This document shows positions 1 to 6,712 of a stretch of 6,712 nt of DNA, in pieces. The DNA lies in IMG/VR virus record IMGVR_UViG_3300029783_000068, positions 1 through 6,712 of that record; one strand, written 5' to 3'. Within the stretch, counting starts at the first letter, position 1, and every line of letters starts with the position of its first letter. Made by a program: the position numbers and the translations under genes. The stretch comes from a virus. The notes under the pieces are model-generated. The model searched no databases. It had not been told where the DNA came from and worked only from the letters and a program-made list of their open reading frames with translations.

Positions 1-497
1 AGCAACAGATGCAGCTTTATTCGTATTCCGCTAATTTGTTTTCTCAGTATGCGCAAGGTTTGTTGTCTTTGGCTACCATTAAGAATCGATTGGCAGAATA
101 TAGTGAATCTATTGCCCGTACCCGAGGTTTAAATATTTCTAACGAGCAGTCCGAGAAGCTTTCTGAATACTTTATTCGTGCGATGAAAGAGGAATATCAG
201 TCTAATGCTGCTTATTATCGTTCATACAAATCTATTGCCGGTGCTGTTGCTACTAGTCGTGGTAATATGGATATTTATGAATCTCAGCTTTCCCGCCTTC
301 AGAGAGATATGCAGGAATTGTTTGCAAAGCGTGAAGGCCATTCCTTGATGAATCGCAAGGCTTATTTTCGTGCGCAGCAGATTTGGCGTGATTTTATTGG
401 TGGTATTATGTCTGGTGCTGCTGCCGGTACTGGTGTTGGTGCCATGTCTAATTATCCTCGCGCCTCGCATAAGACGGTTAAAGGTTTTAGTCGTTAA
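1..497 (+). CDS. VP2: minor capsid / DNA pilot protein (VP2/H-like), C-terminal part; continuation of CDS 5860..6712 across the circular junction (complete codons begin at 3; stop TAA 495-497; whole protein ~416 aa)
   Basis: The frame opened at ATG 5860 runs through 6712 and continues in phase at window start, since 1-99 are identical to 6614-6712. The N-terminal region contains the Microviridae VP2-like segment NAEQAAINREWQTSERDAQNQWNLDQWNRENEYNSPAAQRARLEEAGYNPYM. T-rich third codon positions. Confidence 0.8.
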   Translation, partial: QQMQLYSYSANLFSQYAQGLLSLATIKNRLAEYSESIARTRGLNISNEQSEKLSEYFIRAMKEEYQSNAAYYRSYKSIAGAVATSRGNMDIYESQLSRLQRDMQELFAKREGHSLMNRKAYFRAQQIWRDFIGGIMSGAAAGTGVGAMSNYPRASHKTVKGFSR

Positions 498-501
498 TTA
501 C

Positions 502-524
502 TCCTCCGGTTTACAACCGGAGGA
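502..524 (+). other. perfect 10-bp inverted repeat hairpin TCCTCCGGTT-tac-AACCGGAGGA, 5 nt after the VP2 stop; possible terminator or ssDNA structural element
   Basis: Read directly: 502-511 is the reverse complement of 515-524. No T-tract follows immediately (TTTTT only at 541-545). Confidence 0.5.
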
Positions 525-568
525 ATCTACTCGATTAACATTTTTATATGTTATTTAACATTATATTC

Positions 569-599
569 TTTGGAATTGCATAATAAAATGCTATCTTTG
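569..599 (+). promoter_or_regulatory. candidate Bacteroidetes-type sigma-A promoter: -33 TTTG (569-572), 19-nt spacer, -7 TAtcTTTG (592-599), about 24 nt upstream of ATG 623
   Basis: Exact match to the TTTG...TAnnTTTG consensus, as I recall it for Bacteroides promoters, with canonical spacing. The surrounding DNA is AT-rich, so a chance match is possible. Confidence 0.4.
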
Positions 600-622
600 T
601 AATGTAATCAAAAACAAAGGAT

Positions 623-898
623 ATGAAAACAAACAAATTATTTCGGGTTAATTTTGAGAAAGCTAATGCTATTTATTCAGTTTTTAAAACTTGTAATGTT
701 TTTACAATATTGTTGGATGGCACTTTGCTTCCTGTCTATGATTTTAGTGGTAATAACTTTCGTTCGTCTTTGAATAGTCTTCGCAAGTATTATCCTGACT
801 CTGTAGTTAGGTATCATTTTGAGTCTTCTTTTTATGATCAGAATACTTTACCTACTCCTTTTCATTTAACTTATTCTGATTGTATTCTGTTCTTTTAG
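623..898 (+). CDS. hypothetical protein, 91 aa
   Basis: ORF with strong T bias at third codon positions like the confirmed genes. Same strand as all other genes. Preceded by AAAGGA and the candidate promoter, followed by a GC hairpin. No recognisable motif. Confidence 0.45.
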   Translation: MKTNKLFRVNFEKANAIYSVFKTCNVFTILLDGTLLPVYDFSGNNFRSSLNSLRKYYPDSVVRYHFESSFYDQNTLPTPFHLTYSDCILFF

Positions 899-915
899 GG
901 CTGTTTTTACAGCCC
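898..915 (+). terminator. GC-rich hairpin GGGCTGT-tttt-ACAGCCC (7-bp stem) overlapping the stop of ORF 623-898, followed by TTTAA; weak terminator-like structure
   Basis: 898-904 is the reverse complement of 909-915. Only 3 T follow, so not a canonical intrinsic terminator. Confidence 0.3.
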
Positions 916-957
916 TTTAACACTGTCCGTAGGACACCATTAACGCAGTGAGAGCGC

Positions 958-970
958 CGGACGAAGTCCG
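958..970 (+). other. mini-hairpin CGGAC-GAA-GTCCG (5-bp stem, C-GAA-G triloop)
   Basis: 958-962 is the reverse complement of 966-970. Confidence 0.55.
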
Positions 971-983
971 TGTCGCGGAATCG

Positions 984-994
984 CGTAAACATCC
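984..994 (+). repeat. 11-nt direct repeat CGTAAACATCC, copy 1 (copy 2 at 1083-1093, 99 nt away); both copies lie just 3' of a GAA-triloop hairpin beginning ACGAAGT
   Basis: Exact 11/11 identity read from the sequence. Chance expectation in a 460-nt region is about 0.03. Confidence 0.6.
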
Positions 995-1066
995 TAGCGC
1001 CCTTGAGAATAGTTCCTACTCTTGCGGCGCTCTTTCCCTTGCTTTGTGTTAACCACGTCTCACGCC

Positions 1067-1081
1067 GTCAACGAAGTTGAC
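1067..1081 (+). other. mini-hairpin GTCAAC-GAA-GTTGAC (6-bp stem, C-GAA-G triloop)
   Basis: 1067-1072 is the reverse complement of 1076-1081. Confidence 0.55.
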
Positions 1082-1082
1082 C

Positions 1083-1093
1083 CGTAAACATCC
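1083..1093 (+). repeat. 11-nt direct repeat CGTAAACATCC, copy 2
   Basis: Identical to 984-994. Confidence 0.6.
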
Positions 1094-1128
1094 ATTACGT
1101 CATGTTCAGTCACGTTAGGTTTCGTGTA

Positions 1129-1146
1129 GGGCGCGATGCTGCGCCC
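1129..1146 (+). other. hairpin GGGCGC-gatgct-GCGCCC (6-bp all-GC stem)
   Basis: 1129-1134 is the reverse complement of 1141-1146. Confidence 0.5.
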
Positions 1147-1151
1147 GGAAC

Positions 1152-1164
1152 AGACCGAAGGTCT
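1152..1164 (+). other. mini-hairpin AGACC-GAA-GGTCT (5-bp stem, C-GAA-G triloop)
   Basis: 1152-1156 is the reverse complement of 1160-1164. Confidence 0.55.
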
Positions 1165-1176
1165 ACAAGCGGAGCG

Positions 1177-1191
1177 CCGACCACAGGTCGG
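1177..1191 (+). other. hairpin CCGACC-aca-GGTCGG (6-bp stem, 3-nt loop)
   Basis: 1177-1182 is the reverse complement of 1186-1191. Confidence 0.5.
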
Positions 1192-1226
1192 ATAACAAAA
1201 AACAAAAGGAATAAGAAAGGAATTTA

Positions 1227-1242
1227 GGCTTCCTTAGAAGCC
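1227..1242 (+). other. hairpin GGCTTC-ctta-GAAGCC (6-bp stem), downstream of the purine-rich tandem AAAGGAAT x2 (1205-1223)
   Basis: 1227-1232 is the reverse complement of 1237-1242. Confidence 0.45.
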
Positions 1243-1299
1243 GTTAAGAATTTCTTTATTGTTCCGGTCCGAAGGATTTGTTGTCCTTTAAACGTTGTT

Positions 1300-1308
1300 T
1301 GGCGAAGC
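1300..1308 (+). other. canonical d(GCGAAGC)-type mini-hairpin, GGC-GAA-GCC
   Basis: The sequence GGCGAAGCC contains the GCGAAGC heptamer, known to form an extraordinarily stable DNA mini-hairpin. Confidence 0.5.
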
Positions 1309-1353
1309 CGCGTACATGGAGAATTTAGCGTAGCCTACACTTTTGCCCGAAGG

Positions 1354-1378
1354 GAATCGATGTCACCTTCATCGATTC
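1354..1378 (+). other. 9-bp stem / 7-nt loop hairpin GAATCGATG-tcacctt-CATCGATTC at the boundary between the GC-rich hairpin region and the AT-rich tract 1380-1547; candidate origin-type stem-loop
   Basis: 1354-1362 is the reverse complement of 1370-1378. Each arm contains a palindromic ATCGAT. Confidence 0.45.
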
Positions 1379-1379
1379 A

Positions 1380-1547
1380 ACTCTCTCGTCCTTACTATGC
1401 AAAAGTGACACCTATCCTACTGAATTTGAAGAATTTATTAAATTTTATTTCCTATAGAAATTATCTATACATTTTTCTGTTCATTTATTTTGTATATTAC
1501 CTTTTAGTTTTTATTATTGCATTGTTATTCATCAAAATAATTGTACT
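1380..1547 (+). promoter_or_regulatory. AT-rich non-coding tract upstream of the small ORF and Rep operon; probable promoter and/or DNA-unwinding region (no exact consensus promoter located)
   Basis: Very AT-rich. The only ORF over it (1360-1566) is low-complexity and lacks the T3 codon bias. Near-matches to TAnnTTTG occur (e.g. around 1486-1492) but none is exact. Confidence 0.3.
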
Positions 1548-1742
1548 ATGTTATTCAAAGTCTTAAAACATGCTAAAAACAACGATCCTCAGCGTCCTGT
1601 TGAACCTGTTGTTTATGTTGTTGAGGAAGCTGAACTTCTTCATTTTCTTCATGAAAATTTAAAACCTAGTTCCGGAAACGTGCTTGTGTTCGATTCCTTC
1701 CCCGAAGAGAATCTTTACCTTTTGTCTAACGATAAGGATTAG
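1548..1742 (+). CDS. hypothetical small acidic protein, 64 aa
   Basis: T-rich third codon positions like the bona fide genes. Ends 10 nt before the Rep ATG, giving an operon-like arrangement. No motif recognised. Confidence 0.4.
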   Translation: MLFKVLKHAKNNDPQRPVEPVVYVVEEAELLHFLHENLKPSSGNVLVFDSFPEENLYLLSNDKD

Positions 1743-1752
1743 GTTTTACATC

Positions 1753-3354
1753 ATGGATACCGCAGAGTTCGTCAATAAGTTTTACACTGAATGTCAACAC
1801 AAACGTGAAGTTATTAACCCCTATACTGGTGATATTATTCTCGTTCCCTGTGGTGTCTGTGATGCTTGTAAGGTTTCTAAGTCTGTTCTTGCTGAAAATC
1901 GTATTTATGCTCAGAAGTCTGTTTCGAAACATTGCTATTTTGTTAGTCTCACTTATAAAAATGAGTTTGTCCCTTATTATGAAGTTGAGACTCAGGAGAT
2001 CGATGAAGATAATATTGCTGTTCATGCTTTTGTTCGTCCTCGTCGTAGGCTTACTCGTACTTTCACTTTTCATGGTATTAAGCACGTTCGGCCTGTTCTC
2101 GGTTTAGCGATGGATCAGCAGTTTGACTTTGATTTTTCTTGTAAGAAAGAATATTGGAATCGTTATGCTCTCCAGGCAGATTTGTCTTTTAAAGGAAAGT
2201 ACCCTCAGTATGCCGGTCGTTATGGTTTTCTTTGTCATAAGGACTTGTCTTTATTTATGAAACGTGTACGTAAGCAGATCTTGCTTCGTGATTTAAATCC
2301 TGACCATGAAAAATTACATACATACATTGTGGGAGAGTACGGACCCGTCTCTTTCCGCCCGCATTTCCATATCTTATTTTTCTTTGACTCCGACAAACTC
2401 GCCAAGAATTTTATCCGAGTTGTTAATTCATGCTGGAAATTTGGACGTGTCGATTGCTCTACGTCCAGAGGAAAGGCTGAGTCGTACGTTGCGGGATATC
2501 TTAATAGCTTTACATCTCTTCCCCTACATTTCAAAGAAAATCGCTGCATTCGTCCTTTTGCACGATTCTCTAACCGCTTTGGATTTCAGTTCTTTTCATC
2601 TTCCATTGAAGAAAGTAGGAAAGGAGACTTTTCTAAACTCCTTGATGGAATCAGCGTGCCGGTCAATGGCAAGTATAGAGTTATTCGGCCATGGAGCTCG
2701 ATTATCGATACCTGCTTTTTTCGACCCGTCGCACATAGCCGTCGTACTGTATCTGAATATGTTGAGATATTACGACTTGCTCGGAATATCTGCCAGCGGC
2801 CAGCCTACTGGAAATCATCCATCTTCCAGATACCCAGGCTAATTTATTGGCATTACTACTCGTCTGACCGACAAAGCCAGACAGTGAAAGAGTTGTCTGA
2901 AGATTCTGTCATGACTGATATTATGCAGTTTCTTCATATCGATCCTACCCGAGGCGCTCTTGGTGATGAGTTTTTTGAGCGTTCTTTTTGTAGCCGTTTT
3001 TATATATTTTTTCGGCATTGTGAGAGTTTTCTGTCTTCGATGGGATTCTCCCTTTTCTCTCCGCGAGTAGATTATAATAGGATCCATTCCGCGATTAAGT
3101 TATCTAAAGAGTTTTTTGATGTCAGAGAAAAACAAAGCCTCCAAAATCTTTTTTCAGATTCTCAGTCTTTTGAAAGCGATTGGTCGGATATTTTTTGGAA
3201 TCAAACCGAAGAAAGACAAAGAGAATTTGCAGAGTCCGGATTAGGCTCTATGTGTCGTTCCAAACTTTCTGCTCTTGTACATTCGAAGGTGAAGCATCGG
3301 CACTTGAATGATATGAATAATTTTTTCACGGAGAGAGCTAATTATAATGTCTAG
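1753..3354 (+). CDS. VP4: rolling-circle replication initiation protein (Microviridae VP4 / gpA-like, HUH endonuclease superfamily), 533 aa from ATG 1753 (ORF opens at 1684)
   Basis: Motif I FVSLTY is at 1939-1956 and motif II HFHILFF (HUH) at 2362-2382. Motif III, with two catalytic tyrosines, reads YVAGY at 2485-2499, compared with phiX174 gpA YVAKY. There is an N-terminal Cys cluster C-x18-C-x2-C-x2-C. The conserved-looking N-terminus starts at MDTAEF. Confidence 0.9.
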   Translation: MDTAEFVNKFYTECQHKREVINPYTGDIILVPCGVCDACKVSKSVLAENRIYAQKSVSKHCYFVSLTYKNEFVPYYEVETQEIDEDNIAVHAFVRPRRRLTRTFTFHGIKHVRPVLGLAMDQQFDFDFSCKKEYWNRYALQADLSFKGKYPQYAGRYGFLCHKDLSLFMKRVRKQILLRDLNPDHEKLHTYIVGEYGPVSFRPHFHILFFFDSDKLAKNFIRVVNSCWKFGRVDCSTSRGKAESYVAGYLNSFTSLPLHFKENRCIRPFARFSNRFGFQFFSSSIEESRKGDFSKLLDGISVPVNGKYRVIRPWSSIIDTCFFRPVAHSRRTVSEYVEILRLARNICQRPAYWKSSIFQIPRLIYWHYYSSDRQSQTVKELSEDSVMTDIMQFLHIDPTRGALGDEFFERSFCSRFYIFFRHCESFLSSMGFSLFSPRVDYNRIHSAIKLSKEFFDVREKQSLQNLFSDSQSFESDWSDIFWNQTEERQREFAESGLGSMCRSKLSALVHSKVKHRHLNDMNNFFTERANYNV

Positions 3355-3568
3355 TCGTCGTCCTTACAAGGCGTATTTGTATCAGTCTTCCAATATGCTG
3401 GAAGATAATCAGTTTTATCTCGTGACTGAGATTTATTTGAATGCTCGGTCTTTCGTGGAATTTTCTCATAAGGTTTCAAAACTGAATCAGATCCTTTCGG
3501 ATTCTCATTATGCAGAATCTTTTTATTCTGTTGTTAACCTTGGCGATATTTATTATCGCGAAATTTAA
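3347..3568 (+). CDS. hypothetical small protein, 73 aa, basic N-terminus (MSSRRPYKAY); its start overlaps the Rep stop (ATGTCTAG)
   Basis: T-rich third codon positions. An 8-nt overlap with the rep stop suggests translational coupling. Sits between rep and VP1. A DNA-binding (J/VP8-like) role is speculative. Confidence 0.45.
   Translation: MSSRRPYKAYLYQSSNMLEDNQFYLVTEIYLNARSFVEFSHKVSKLNQILSDSHYAESFYSVVNLGDIYYREI
3543..3559 (+). other. hairpin GCGATA-tttat-TATCGC 14 nt upstream of the VP1 start codon
   Basis: 3543-3548 is the reverse complement of 3554-3559. Could modulate VP1 translation or be incidental. Confidence 0.3.
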
Positions 3569-3572
3569 TTTT

Positions 3573-5438
3573 ATGGCTTCAAACTTATTTTCTTTTGGAG
3601 ATGTTCGGAATCACCCTCACAGGTCCGGTTTCGATCTTTCTCGTCGTATCTGTTTCACCAGCAAGGCTGGTGAACTTTTGCCAGTTTATTATAAACTGGT
3701 TTATCCAGGTGACAAATTTCAGATTCGTCATCAGTTGTTTACTCGTACTCAACCCGTTAATACAGCTGCGTATACTCGTATCCGTGAATATTTGGACTGG
3801 TATTTTGTTCCGTTGCGTTTGATTAATAAGAACCTTCCTCAGGCTCTTATGAATATGCAGGATAATCCGGTTCAGGCATCAGGCATTAACGCTAATAAGA
3901 TTATTACAAATGATATTCCTTATTTTGTTCTTTCTGGTTCTACTGTGTCCCTTGCTGATCTTTTAACAATTATGTATGGTTCTAAAAAGGACGGATCTGC
4001 TGCTGTTTTGAATTTTTTTGGTTTTAATACTGCCTCTCTTTCTGCAAAGTTACTTATGATGCTTCGTTATGGTAATTTTGTTAGTGATATTGTAGATGCT
4101 AATCTTTATGGAAATTCTTTTGGATTGAGTTCTGATCCTAATTTTTCTTTGCGTGCTTATAATAGTAGTTATGCTTTAAACATTTTGCCTCTTGCGGCTT
4201 ATCAGAAGATTTATGCAGATCATTTTAGGTTTTCTCAATGGGAGAAGAATGAGCCTTATACGTACAATTTTGATTGGTATTCAGGTGGTAATGTTTTTGC
4301 TTCTATTGGGCTTAATCAAGTTCGTGAGTATATCGAGAAAAATAATCTTTTAACTCTTCGTTATGCTAATTGGCCGAAAGACCTTTTTATGGGTGTTATG
4401 CCTAATTCCCAGTTAGGTGATGTTTCTGTTGTGGATATTTTACCTACATCCTCTGCTTCGCCTAATCTCATTGGTGATGTTGTTGGTGTTACTGTTGACA
4501 ATGTCAATGCTACCGGATTGATAGCCATGAATGGTACTACTGAGCCCGGAGTGTTTAATATGAGGCCTGCTCGTACGCCTCAGACTGATGCTGTTTTGAG
4601 AGCTGTTATTTCTAATCCTTCTCTTCAGGCTTCTTTTTCTGTTCTTCAGCTTCGTATGGCTGAAGCTGTTCAGCGTTACCGCGAAGTTTCTCAGGTTGCT
4701 GATCAGACTGCCCGCGATCAGATTTATGCGCATTTTGGTGTAAGTTTGTCTCCTGCTTTGTCTGATACTTGTTTCCGCATTGGAGGTTCTGCTTCTAATA
4801 TCGATATTTCTGAGGTAGTCAATACTTTTTTGGGTCCTGATACAGAAACTGAAGCTAATATTAAAGGTAAAGGTGTTGGTACTGGTCAAGGTGGAACTTC
4901 TTTTTCTTCTGACGAATATGGTATTTTGATGGCTATTTATCATATTGTTCCTCTTTTGGATTATGTGATTACTGGTCAGCCTCAGGATCTTTTGTACACT
5001 AATACTGCTGATCTTCCTTTTCCGGAGTTTGATAGTATTGGCATGCAGTCACTTCATTTTGGTCGGTTTTTTAATTACAAGACCGCTGCATTTACCTCTG
5101 ATCCTACAGGTTCGGTTATGGGTTATACTCCGCGTTTTATCGATTTAAAGACTGACTATGATGAGGTATACGGAGCTTTCCGTTCTACTTTAAAATCTTG
5201 GGTTGCTCCGCTTGATCCTACGTATCTTTCTAAATGGGTATCTTCTACCATTCTCCCTGGTGAATCTACTCCTGTTTATTCGTTGAATTATGGTTTCTTT
5301 AAAGTGAATCCGTCTGTTTTGGATAGTATTTTTAGACTTAAGGCTGATAGTTCGATGGATACTGATCAGTTCTTGAGTTCTCTTTATCTGGATGTCAAGG
5401 CTGTCCGGAATTTCGACTATGATGGTATGCCTTATTAA
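3573..5438 (+). CDS. VP1: major capsid protein (Microviridae VP1 / F-like), 621 aa from ATG 3573 (ORF opens at 3510)
   Basis: N-terminus MASNLFSFGDVRNHPHRSGFDLS...LPGDKF...REYLDWYFVPLRL matches the conserved Microviridae VP1 N-terminal jelly-roll region. Size is typical. Strong T3 codon bias. Stop TAA at 5436-5438. Confidence 0.92.
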   Translation: MASNLFSFGDVRNHPHRSGFDLSRRICFTSKAGELLPVYYKLVYPGDKFQIRHQLFTRTQPVNTAAYTRIREYLDWYFVPLRLINKNLPQALMNMQDNPVQASGINANKIITNDIPYFVLSGSTVSLADLLTIMYGSKKDGSAAVLNFFGFNTASLSAKLLMMLRYGNFVSDIVDANLYGNSFGLSSDPNFSLRAYNSSYALNILPLAAYQKIYADHFRFSQWEKNEPYTYNFDWYSGGNVFASIGLNQVREYIEKNNLLTLRYANWPKDLFMGVMPNSQLGDVSVVDILPTSSASPNLIGDVVGVTVDNVNATGLIAMNGTTEPGVFNMRPARTPQTDAVLRAVISNPSLQASFSVLQLRMAEAVQRYREVSQVADQTARDQIYAHFGVSLSPALSDTCFRIGGSASNIDISEVVNTFLGPDTETEANIKGKGVGTGQGGTSFSSDEYGILMAIYHIVPLLDYVITGQPQDLLYTNTADLPFPEFDSIGMQSLHFGRFFNYKTAAFTSDPTGSVMGYTPRFIDLKTDYDEVYGAFRSTLKSWVAPLDPTYLSKWVSSTILPGESTPVYSLNYGFFKVNPSVLDSIFRLKADSSMDTDQFLSSLYLDVKAVRNFDYDGMPY

Positions 5439-5449
5439 ATGTGTTTGTT

Positions 5450-5860
5450 ATGAGTAAAAGTGAAACTTTTGTTATTTCTGGAATGTCTTCAGCTATTGCT
5501 GTTGTTGTTCAACCTATAGAGTCTCTTCGGTTTTATACTGATGAAGATGGTTGTGTTCACATGAATTCTGACGTCAATTTGCTTATGAATGCTGAGCGCA
5601 TTCGCAATCAGATTGGTGAAGAGAATTATTTGAATATTGTTCGTTCTATTCAGCCTTCTCGATCTCCTTATAAGCAAAAGTTGGATGATGATGCATTGAT
5701 TTCTACTTTGAAGTCTCGTTATCTTCAGTCTCCTGCCGAAGTTGATGCTTGGATGGCTGGTCTTGATCAGAAGTATGAGGATATGGTTGCTGAGGTTAAA
5801 GCGGCTGCTATTGCTTCTCAGGTTCCTGATGATTCTCAACCTGTTCAGTCTACTGAATAA
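5450..5860 (+). CDS. putative internal scaffolding protein (VP3-like), 136 aa from ATG 5450 (alternative GTG 5441), acidic
   Basis: Lies between VP1 and VP2 as in gokushoviruses. Size is about that of VP3, with an acidic C-terminal half. Its stop overlaps the VP2 start (TAATG). The functional assignment rests on position and size only. Confidence 0.55.
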   Translation: MSKSETFVISGMSSAIAVVVQPIESLRFYTDEDGCVHMNSDVNLLMNAERIRNQIGEENYLNIVRSIQPSRSPYKQKLDDDALISTLKSRYLQSPAEVDAWMAGLDQKYEDMVAEVKAAAIASQVPDDSQPVQSTE

Positions 5861-6712
5861 TGGGCCCGCTTGTTGGTGCCGCACTTATTAAAGGTGGTTC
5901 CGGACTTCTTGGTTCTGTTTTTAATGGCAGCATGAATAAGCGTGCTGCCAAGGCTTATAACAAAGGTCAGAAGGAGATTGCCCAGATGAACAATCAATGG
6001 AATGCCGAACAGGCAGCCATTAATCGTGAGTGGCAGACCTCTGAACGTGATGCTCAGAACCAGTGGAATTTGGATCAGTGGAATCGTGAAAACGAATATA
6101 ATTCTCCGGCCGCGCAGCGTGCCCGCCTTGAAGAGGCCGGATATAATCCTTACATGAATGGACTTGATGGTAATACAGCAGGTACTGGTGTTACTTCTGC
6201 CGGTGTTTCCGGTGTAGGTAATCCTACCGCCGAAATGCCTAATCAGGTTCCTGCTGCTTTCAATATGGATTTCAGTTCTATTGGCGATGCTATTAATTCT
6301 TACTATCAGAATCAGCTTTTAGCTAATCAGGCTAAAGGACAGGATATTCAAAATACTTTTGATCTTCAGTTCGGCAGTGATTTTCGCAAAGCTCAGATAG
6401 CAAGTTTGATTGATGGTCGTTATGAGTTCTTGAACCCTTCTTACAGAAATCTTCGTGATCTTTATGCGCCTCAGCAGGCTGTTACGGATTTAAGTAAGTC
6501 CCGTCAGGAACTTGCAGGTCTTCGTACCCAGACTCAGCTTACAGCTGCTCAGGCTTTTCTTACTGGTTTACAAGGTAAAGCACAGGAGATTATGAATAAG
6601 TATTTGCCTGCTCAGCAACAGATGCAGCTTTATTCGTATTCCGCTAATTTGTTTTCTCAGTATGCGCAAGGTTTGTTGTCTTTGGCTACCATTAAGAATC
6701 GATTGGCAGAAT
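5860..6712 (+). CDS. VP2: minor capsid / DNA pilot protein (VP2/H-like), N-terminal part; truncated by the window end and continues at 1..497
   Basis: ATG 5860 overlaps the TAA of the upstream gene. The product begins with a Gly-rich N-terminus MGPLVGAALIKGGSGLLGSVFNG, followed by the Microviridae VP2 motif region ...AQRARLEEAGYNPYM. The ORF track shows no stop because the frame is open to the window end. Confidence 0.85.
   Translation, partial: MGPLVGAALIKGGSGLLGSVFNGSMNKRAAKAYNKGQKEIAQMNNQWNAEQAAINREWQTSERDAQNQWNLDQWNRENEYNSPAAQRARLEEAGYNPYMNGLDGNTAGTGVTSAGVSGVGNPTAEMPNQVPAAFNMDFSSIGDAINSYYQNQLLANQAKGQDIQNTFDLQFGSDFRKAQIASLIDGRYEFLNPSYRNLRDLYAPQQAVTDLSKSRQELAGLRTQTQLTAAQAFLTGLQGKAQEIMNKYLPAQQQMQLYSYSANLFSQYAQGLLSLATIKNRLAE
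6614..6712. repeat. 99-nt terminal redundancy of the window (identical to 1-99), reflecting a circular 6613-nt genome
   Basis: Exact 99/99 identity. The VP2 frame is continuous across the junction. Confidence 0.95.

Follow-up and report, generated by a model that had tools for sequence, protein, structure and literature searches.

A conserved cluster of C-GNA-G mini-hairpins in a microvirus genome, a candidate complementary-strand origin

Why should a virus with a single-stranded DNA (ssDNA) genome crowd a set of tiny hairpins into its one large non-coding region? The question is raised by IMG/VR record IMGVR_UViG_3300029783_000068, analysed here from position 1 to 6,712 (the window, 6,712 nt), in which a sequence-only reading had noticed a cluster of the pentamer CGAAG, each copy flanked by an inverted repeat. 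That reading proposed a ‘recognition or structural role’ and named no function; the comparisons below support and sharpen its proposal. The hairpin motif is strongly enriched in this region and on one strand only, is conserved among related viruses inside helices that covary, varies as loops in DNA do, and is gained and lost in modules. The element that carries it probably acts as folded ssDNA of the viral strand, and as its function we tentatively favour an origin for synthesis of the complementary (minus) strand on the packaged (+) strand.

On the + strand of the window, CGAAG occurs six times in the region, at 962, 1072, 1156, 1270 and 1348 as had been given and at 1303 where 1302 had been given. 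The inverted repeats around all six are exact, the heptamer d(GCGAAGC) is present at 1302-1308, and CCGAAGG does recur three times (from 1155, 1269 and 1347). The background had been underestimated: the rest of the + strand holds five further copies, instead of about two, the - strand has ten, and local dinucleotide content predicts about 0.9-1.0 copies, instead of 0.4. Six copies were reached in 1-3 of 20,000 shuffles. A count of the structure itself is far more telling than one of the pentamer. Within 924-1354 (region 917-1445), the + strand has seven C-GNA-G hairpins with stems of at least 3 bp, all with G first, A third and a free second position in the loop and all closed by C:G; shuffles average 0.16, and not one of 20,000 had as many as seven. 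These are the six GAA hairpins plus one at 924-936, overlooked earlier because its loop is GTA. With stems of at least 4 bp, four hairpins stand against 0.04 expected. Elsewhere in the window, two hairpins of the 3-bp class lie on the + strand and none on the - strand.

Relatives of the element were collected in two ways. A sensitive blastn search with 895-1420 against 50,697 phage records matched Dulem, bajarodmic and Peromfec viruses only, and about 70 further loci, mostly circles of 6.3-6.9 kb from gut samples, came from pattern scans of IMG/VR and metagenome contigs; together the two gave 61 distinct complete elements. A gapped-pattern scan of IMG/VR was noisy and yielded no new members. 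In 42 complete related genomes, the density of C-GNA-G hairpins reaches 11.9 per kb within the element, compared with 0.28 per kb on the remaining + strand and zero on the - strand of the element, so that the motif is far from equally common outside the intergenic region, the outcome that would have undone the earlier proposal; 2.2 Mb of unrelated viral loci have 0.17 per kb. These densities and the shuffle counts exclude chance or base composition as the source of the cluster. No clustering was seen in the unrelated loci, save for one tandem repeat on a contig of a giant-virus metagenome-assembled genome (MAG; L089, 9060-9360). There, a 15-nt unit, GGTGC(T/A)TACGAAGTA, could form a TAC-GAA-GTA mini-hairpin in each copy, which makes this the sole unrelated locus with a comparable cluster.

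The non-coding region is common to the window, bajarodmic viruses 502, 273 and 1133 and Peromfec virus RodF7_5 by blastn, and a whole-genome megablast aligned little else from the bajarodmic and Peromfec viruses. Compared with bajarodmic virus 502 (baja502), the core of the element has about 75% nucleotide identity, while Rep has 44% and the capsid protein 52% amino-acid identity, and invariant runs within the element extend to about 16 nt. Judged by these alignments, the element is more conserved than the proteins, non-coding though it is. The selected GAA triloop of the sequence-only reading thus holds as far as selection goes, which the relatives bear out; the selected unit is C-GNA-G, not GAA. 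A pattern search of bacterial genomes (one genome per species, 185,579 species) gave no match and PLSDB plasmids showed no similarity; a host or plasmid source was rejected on these searches.

The mini-hairpins are parts of a larger multi-helix fold, backed by covariation, and not independent stem-loops (Table 1). Compared with shuffles, the region folds with a z-score of -6.2 under DNA parameters and -4.9 under RNA parameters. Its 5′ domain (917-1099) comprises hairpin H0 and two similar modules, each with TTAAC, a short closing helix, a GNA hairpin and an invariant single-stranded GTAAACATCC. This last motif has exactly two copies in the genome, about 99 nt apart, and GTAAACATC likewise occurs in the whole genome at 985 and 1084 only. 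An accessory insert and a 3′ domain built as a three-way junction follow.

Table 1. Features of the element in the window, in order of position
Feature	Position	Strand	Remark
Terminator-like hairpin GGGCTG-TTTTTA-CAGCCC, then TTT	898-915	+	Adjoins open reading frame 623-898; upstream edge of element
H0, TGTCC-GTA-GGACA	924-936	+	C-GNA-G mini-hairpin
5′ module 1	937-994	+	Invariant CCATTAAC, AGTGAGAG and GGAATC; helices P1 and P2; H1; GTAAACATCC
Helix P1	943-946 with 983-986	+	Covariation
Helix P2	954-956 with 974-976	+	Covariation
H1, CGGAC-GAA-GTCCG	958-970	+	Loops in relatives GAA, GTA, GGA, one AAA
Single-stranded GTAAACATCC, copy 1	985-994	+	Invariant
Long hairpin, AGCGCC...GAGAA/TACTC...GGCGCT	996-1032	+	Between the two modules; tentative
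5′ module 2: H2, GTCAAC-GAA-GTTGAC (1067-1081), then GTAAACATCC, copy 2 (1084-1093)	1067-1093	+	
Accessory insert, 225 nt	1100-1324	+	Three of the six GAA hairpins and four other hairpins
Insert hairpin GGGCGC-GATGCT-GCGCCC	1129-1146	+	
Insert hairpin AGACC-GAA-GGTCT	1152-1164	+	
Insert hairpin CCGACC-ACA-GGTCGG	1177-1191	+	Stem varies to CCGGCC, CCGGTC with matching partners
Insert long hairpin capped by GGCTTC-CTTA-GAAGCC	1227-1242	+	
Insert hairpin TCC-GAA-GGA	1268-1276	+	
Insert hairpin GGC-GAA-GCC	1301-1309	+	
3′ core domain, three-way junction	1338-1411	+	Covariance model R1
Stem P, 8 bp, CACTTTTG with CAAAAGTG	1338-1345 with 1400-1407	+	
Hairpin A, CCC-GAA-GGG	1346-1354	+	Enclosed by stem P
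Hairpin B, AATCGATG/CATCGATT	1355-1377	+	Enclosed by stem P
Pyrimidine-rich joining strand	1378-1399	+	Follows hairpin B
Invariant 16-mer TATGCAAAAGTGACAC	1396-1411	+	3′ end of core domain
H5, TGAATTT-GAA-GAATTTA	1421-1437	+	7-bp stem, two G.T pairs in the window

Covariation argues for this fold in both domains. A search with R1, the covariance model of the 3′ domain, brought up 77 instances. In their alignment, 97.5% of the cells are paired, 11 of the 19 pairs have changed on both sides and none shows a one-sided (G.U) change. These values were reached in 0 of 500 shuffles, and sliding the partners by one to three columns lowered pairing to 22-49%. Hairpin B has been replaced wholesale across lineages with its pairing kept (AATCGATG/CATCGATT, AATCAGG/CCTGATT, AAGCGTCG/CGACGCTT and TTCGGGTT/AACCCGAA). 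The 5′ domain, examined with a hand-drawn structure and 57 sequences, shows 94% pairing and two-sided changes at 13 pairs, values again reached in 0 of 500 shuffles; covariation in either domain exceeds all 500 shuffles and all slid controls. Both variable pairs of P1 turn from GC to CG in 19 of the 57 sequences and P2 has CG to AU in 16; H2 is paired throughout (100%), with AU to GC in 13. The helices of the long hairpin at 996-1032 (alignment columns 80-85/113-118 and 89-93/102-108) are 84-90% paired with some double changes, and RNAalifold offers a competing pairing there, of 113-115 with 153-155. A CGCG-GAAT-CGCG hairpin at 973-984, suggested by folding of the single sequence, was rejected: relatives read CGGAATCCGG at this place, covariation favours P1 and P2, and GGAATC forms a strand of the internal loop in the P1/P2 structure.

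Two open reading frames (ORFs), 1102-1227 and 1360-1566, overlap the element, and protein coding was discarded as its explanation since they are not conserved: the insert is missing in relatives, and hairpin B is swapped for unrelated sequence with pairing kept. Neither a tRNA nor a tmRNA was detected in the window.

The composition of the element varies by whole modules. Dulem virus 265 and about two thirds of the elements cleanly lack the insert, whose site elsewhere holds a 14-nt stub or an 86-nt partial form, and in baja502 a different insert. Short repeats lie near its edges in the window (ACGTTAG at 1113, ATTTAG at 1324) and suggest that the 225-nt difference from Dulem virus 265 is a deletion by microhomology. 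Of the six GAA hairpins, only those at 962, 1072 and 1348 are part of the conserved core; the insert holds the remaining three. The 3′ domain is found alone in Peromfec virus RodF7_5, in prophages of Xylanibacter rarus and a Bacteroidales MAG, where it directly follows the pilot-protein gene in both cases, and in several distant IMG/VR microviruses; this distribution suggests that it is the ancient core of the element. Hairpin A reads TGC-GAA-GCA, CGC-GAAA-GCG or TCC-GTAA-GGA in these distant relatives and prophages. Since relatives with the 3′ domain alone have a single mini-hairpin, the cluster in the window would be a product of module accretion.

The loops of these hairpins bear on whether the fold is one of DNA or of RNA. 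In the conserved hairpins, G1 and A3 are kept, the middle base can be any of the four and the closing pair is C:G. Among the 61 unique elements, the loop of H0 is GAA in 38, GTA in 13, GCA in 8 and GGA and ACA in one each, which leaves G1 and A3 intact in 60, and its stem covaries (GTCC/GGAC, GTGC/GCAC, TGCC/GGCA). H1, H2 and the insert hairpins have similar loop patterns: relatives show GAA or GGA in H2, including one 7-bp variant GTCAATC-GAA-GATTGAC, and GAA/GAAT, GAA/GTA or GAA/GGA alternatives in the insert. Hairpin A is found with GAA, GGA, GAAT, GGAT, GTAT, GTTA, GTAA and GAAA. The triloop is thus replaced in relatives by 4-nt loops of the types GNAB (GAAT/GGAT/GTAT) and GNNA (GTTA/GTAA/GAAA), and the variants match d(cGNAg), d(cGNABg) and d(cGNNAg). 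As for RNA loop motifs, GNRA fits only two of the roughly 24 variants (GTAA and GAAA, from two lineages) and UNCG none.

The C:G closing pair has rare exceptions, the L028 variant of H2 and H5 of the window, the only GNA hairpin here that lacks it (a T.G pair closes its loop). In most relatives, H5 is TGGATTC-GAA-GAATCCA, fully Watson-Crick and closed by C:G; GGA, AAA or GAG loops and GAATTC stems also occur.

These are the rules derived for the d(GCGAAGC) and d(cGNAg) loops of Hirao and Yoshizawa (G first, A third, a free middle base, C:G closing), and the 4-nt alternatives are the d(cGNABg) and d(cGNNAg) tetraloops of Nakano and Bevilacqua. All three loop types are documented to be exceptionally stable as DNA, and closure by C:G contributes about 2-3 kcal/mol (PMC13037366, PMC3201870); for d(cGNAg), only GNA forms the mini-hairpin, and melting temperatures fall in the order A > G > C > T. 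Whereas that work dealt with oligonucleotides and in vitro selection, the motifs here vary naturally inside a larger fold and are under purifying selection. The family shows natural selection on precisely those rules that biophysical work established for hyper-stable DNA loops, which supports a biological role for them beyond G4 and ssiA, the systems discussed below.

Pairing in the 3′ domain points the same way: none of its 947 stem cells is G.U and every substitution leads from one Watson-Crick pair to another, a pattern that is unusual for an RNA family. A few G.U pairs do occur in the less certain 5′ helices. The + strand is the only strand that is ever free as ssDNA; the strand of the motif cannot by itself decide between DNA and RNA, because the viral strand and the mRNAs share their sense. 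It is the loop substitutions, the lack of wobble pairs in the 3′ domain and the position of the element that favour a DNA fold.

As to that position, the window is a complete circular Microviridae genome. Its identification as a microvirus, made earlier from the letters alone, is confirmed by whole-genome matches (88% identity across 96% of the length) to its nearest relatives, Dulem viruses 265 and 266, which came from lemur faeces. Among the seven ORFs scanned, PHROGs recognises only Rep (1753-3351) and the major capsid protein (3510-5435). Relatives of the capsid protein are found as prophages in Xylanibacter and one Bacteroidales MAG, so the host is taken to be a member of Bacteroidales; the Alpavirinae-type proviruses of this order described by Krupovic and Forterre represent the same setting (PMC3091885). 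The cluster does lie in the large intergenic region, as had been stated. This 650-nt gap (898-1547) is non-coding and free of conserved ORFs, bounded on one side by a small ORF (623-898) and on the other by a short ORF and the rep gene, and its G+C content is about 0.5, compared with about 0.3-0.45 in the remainder of the genome. Within it, the element is placed after the terminator-like hairpin and before an AT-rich region upstream of rep.

A signal for initiation on a single strand fits this combination of hyper-stable hairpins, an invariant motif 3′ of them, + strand location and the sole large non-coding region. The invariant single-stranded motifs are the two copies of GTAAACATCC and a GTGACAC after the 3′ junction domain. 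In the mechanism that we tentatively favour, the fold would form in vivo on ssDNA, exclude single-stranded DNA-binding protein (SSB) and mark where priming starts. The C-GNA-G mini-hairpins would be hyper-stable nucleation points that keep it intact on naked or SSB-coated viral DNA; after entry, host SSB would cover the rest of the circle but leave this fold bare; and a priming enzyme of the host, either a Bacteroidales primase or RNA polymerase, would recognise both the fold and the single-stranded motif beside it and lay the primer that converts the ssDNA into the replicative form. The 5′ modules and the insert may be additional or enhancing entry sites, a role that agrees with how freely they are gained and lost. 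With the element constant and Rep diverging, a host factor fits the recognising role better than Rep does.

Precedents for such a signal exist. Primase-dependent complementary-strand origins carry GCGAAAGC in G4 and GCGTTAGC in the oric of St-1 and alpha3, the RSF1010 ssiA hairpin is capped by CCGAAGG, and the N4 virion RNA polymerase reads hairpin promoters with GGA and GAA loops on ssDNA (PMC13037366); the literature thus ties GNA and GNNA mini-hairpins to ssDNA initiation sites (PMC13037366), in line with the earlier remark on origins of ssDNA coliphages. Mini-hairpin DNA is also nuclease-resistant and poorly bound by SSB (PMC13037366). Like the oric of the DnaG-primed Microviridae G4, St-1, phiK and alpha3, the element occupies a non-coding intergenic stretch of the viral strand and has G..A loops closed by C:G; the proposed logic of a fold that escapes SSB and flags a priming site is shared with G4 (PMC13037366), and one relative of the window (L210) has the literal GCGAAAGC in hairpin A. 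Differences from G4 oric are equally plain. The element has no sequence similarity to it, is modular and measures 340-570 nt, whereas G4 oric is roughly 140 nt; it holds up to 8 triloop mini-hairpins against one tetraloop, has a three-way junction supported by covariation and no conserved CTG start, and its host belongs to Bacteroidales and is not E. coli.

The CCGAAGG cap, three copies of which lie in the window, is shared with RSF1010 ssiA/ssiB. In ssiA, the primer starts at a GTG triplet, within a conserved single strand on the 3′ side of the hairpin; hairpin plus GTAAACATCC and junction plus GTGACAC resemble this arrangement. In contrast, ssiA is a single 40-nt hairpin served by the plasmid-encoded primase RepB', similarity is limited to the loop heptamer, and the PHROGs scan of the seven ORFs found no recognisable primase in the phage. 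A further class, the ssoA-type origins and the Ff minus-strand origin, consists of long, folded and orientation-dependent non-coding ssDNA that recruits host polymerase for the lagging strand, with RSB and CS-6 (TAGCGT) as the ssoA hallmarks. Unlike in ssoA, the TAGCGT of the window (1326-1331) varies to TAGTGA, TTATGA or TGGCGG in relatives, and, unlike in sso and Ff origins, no promoter-like -35/-10 mimic was found in the element. A candidate sigma-70 mimic in the stems, GTGACA-N18-AAGAAT, was set aside since its spacing varies among relatives. By analogy, the element would work like G4 oric and ssiA in its proposed role while belonging to neither family. The literature searched on non-coding and structured-ssDNA elements of microviruses contains no description of such an element, though one may exist beyond it.

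Several observations weigh against a complementary-strand origin. Relatives do not conserve the CTG at 1419-1421, which lies 3′ of the 3′ domain, and neither blastn nor the PLSDB search showed the element to resemble G4 oric, ssiA or plasmid sso elements in sequence. The invariant 16-mer TATGCAAAAGTGACAC suits a nick or recognition site of Rep equally well. Distant relatives manage with a single mini-hairpin, so the core function does not require the cluster as such. The 5′ fold is uncertain in part, one pair of its long hairpin being a C.A mismatch in 36 of 57 sequences, and mRNA has the same sense as the element, which makes an RNA role compatible with the sequence. The wider proposal that the element is multi-domain, tertiary-structured ssDNA, a DNA equivalent of the large structured non-coding RNAs, grown by accretion of mini-hairpins on an ancient three-way-junction core and representing a new class of host-primed minus-strand origins of Bacteroidales microviruses, is possible but doubtful. 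If true, the loop pattern and the lack of G.U pairs would be the first comparative-genomic signature parting functional ssDNA folds from RNA folds.

For the 3′ domain, the main alternative is a plus-strand origin combined with a packaging signal, a reading that we regard as unlikely. Here, Rep would use the junction domain, with or without the GTAAACATCC repeats, as its site for binding and nicking the replicative form, for ending each round and for transferring the strand to the procapsid. The location just upstream of rep suits this scenario, as do the invariance of TATGCAAAAGTGACAC, the iteron-like spacing of the GTAAACATCC repeats (~99 nt) and the retention of the 3′ domain in all relatives, prophages included; many HUH Rep proteins, moreover, nick in the loop of a hairpin or junction. 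However, origins usually co-vary with their Rep, and this recognition sequence is invariant while Rep falls to 44% identity. Hyper-stable loops on one strand only would not help a cruciform to extrude from double-stranded DNA, a nick would be looked for in the joining strand, which is one of the most variable parts, and the 5′ modules and insert come and go among close relatives with similar Reps.

Quite improbable, in our assessment, is an RNA element, whether the 3′ end of a late or pilot-gene mRNA or a separate non-coding RNA, whose hairpins would stabilise the transcript or bind a host protein. In its favour, the element has the sense of all genes and directly follows, on the 3′ side, the final ORF of the structural block, its z-score with RNA parameters is itself low (-4.9), and covariation tests cannot part RNA from DNA (PMC5737381). 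Against this stand the loops, which follow DNA-specific motifs and not GNRA/UNCG, the 3′ domain free of G.U pairs, and the terminator-like hairpin that precedes the element, with no promoter-like box inside it: a scan of 900-1547 for the Bacteroides-type -7 box (TAnnTTTG) was negative. Nor does any Rfam family match, searches with the whole window and with the region alone giving sub-threshold hits only. The best, to PrrB/RsmZ over 1128-1257 in the insert, is a weak point for RNA at 18.2 bits against a gathering score of 44 and was treated as chance; the stretch contains AAAGGAATAAGAAAGGAATTTAGG.

We give even less credence to a structural or protective role of the ssDNA without priming, be it condensation in the virion, contact with the capsid, or a shield or decoy that counters SSB, nucleases or ssDNA-sensing defences of the host. 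The nuclease resistance and poor SSB binding of mini-hairpins are in keeping with it (PMC13037366), and free gain and loss of modules would be expected of a dosage-type function. A diffuse role of this kind would not demand invariant single-stranded motifs and a conserved three-way junction, however, and the hairpins are confined to one intergenic region instead of being spread along the genome.

Finally, a folded-ssDNA attachment site for integration by host XerC/D, as in CTX-phi, is very improbable: Krupovic and Forterre do report dif-like att sites upstream of rep in Bacteroidales proviruses and remark on CTX-like inverted pairs (PMC3091885), but the prophage of the Bacteroidales MAG (L195) keeps the 3′ domain intact and internal (13728-13803), its dif-like direct repeats (~7745 and ~14273) lie outside the element, ~470 nt downstream of the 3′ domain in the latter case, and its att sequence has no match in the window at up to 3 mismatches. 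The junctions of this prophage, bounded by TATTTATCATA(A/C)TACAAATTATAGGA at about 7745-7770 and about 14273-14298, rule out the element itself as a XerCD attP. A 9-mer in the 5′ domain of most relatives, TTATGTTAA, equals what we take to be the XerD-arm core of E. coli dif, maybe by coincidence; its counterpart in the window is TTGTGTTAA at 1049-1057. Neither a matching XerC arm nor an inverted partner was seen. Bajarodmic viruses 502, 273 and 1133 have a sequence similar to the prophage repeats, CATATTATAAATTATAGGACA, in the stretch from the element to rep (about 4440-4465 in baja502, L002). The lineage of the window may not integrate, as it has no dif-like site at up to 3 mismatches.

Few phages of the mammalian gut are more abundant than Bacteroidales microviruses, which are largely uncultured, and we know of no mapped replication origin in any of these microviruses. 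The element offers a concrete candidate complementary-strand origin for gut microviruses, with a 3′ domain that can be searched for with covariance model R1. Loop type and lack of wobble pairs might also become a practical criterion for telling ssDNA folds from RNA folds, a distinction that motif-discovery work calls hard to make bioinformatically (PMC5737381). Possible uses include an ssDNA origin for Bacteroides vectors and mini-hairpin modules as compact stabilising cassettes.

Some minor observations concern the surroundings of the element. A hairpin equivalent to that at 898-915 precedes the element in relatives, with a clear T-run in baja502 and baja1133. In the window, it is the only hairpin resembling a terminator, none of the mini-hairpins being called as one; a simple terminator scan of the window missed it because of its short T-run. 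Three contigs, L038 (12,801 nt), L180 (12,938 nt) and L145 (7,473 nt), contain two copies of the element each, which in L038 and L180 differ in type, one with a long insert and one short; such contigs could be hetero-dimers of two related microviruses or chimeric assemblies. The homologue of the 91-aa ORF 623-898 in the Dulem virus 265 record is labelled ‘replication initiator protein’, probably wrongly, and the ORF has no PHROGs match. Upstream of it, at 592-599, lies a Bacteroides-type -7 box, TATCTTTG.

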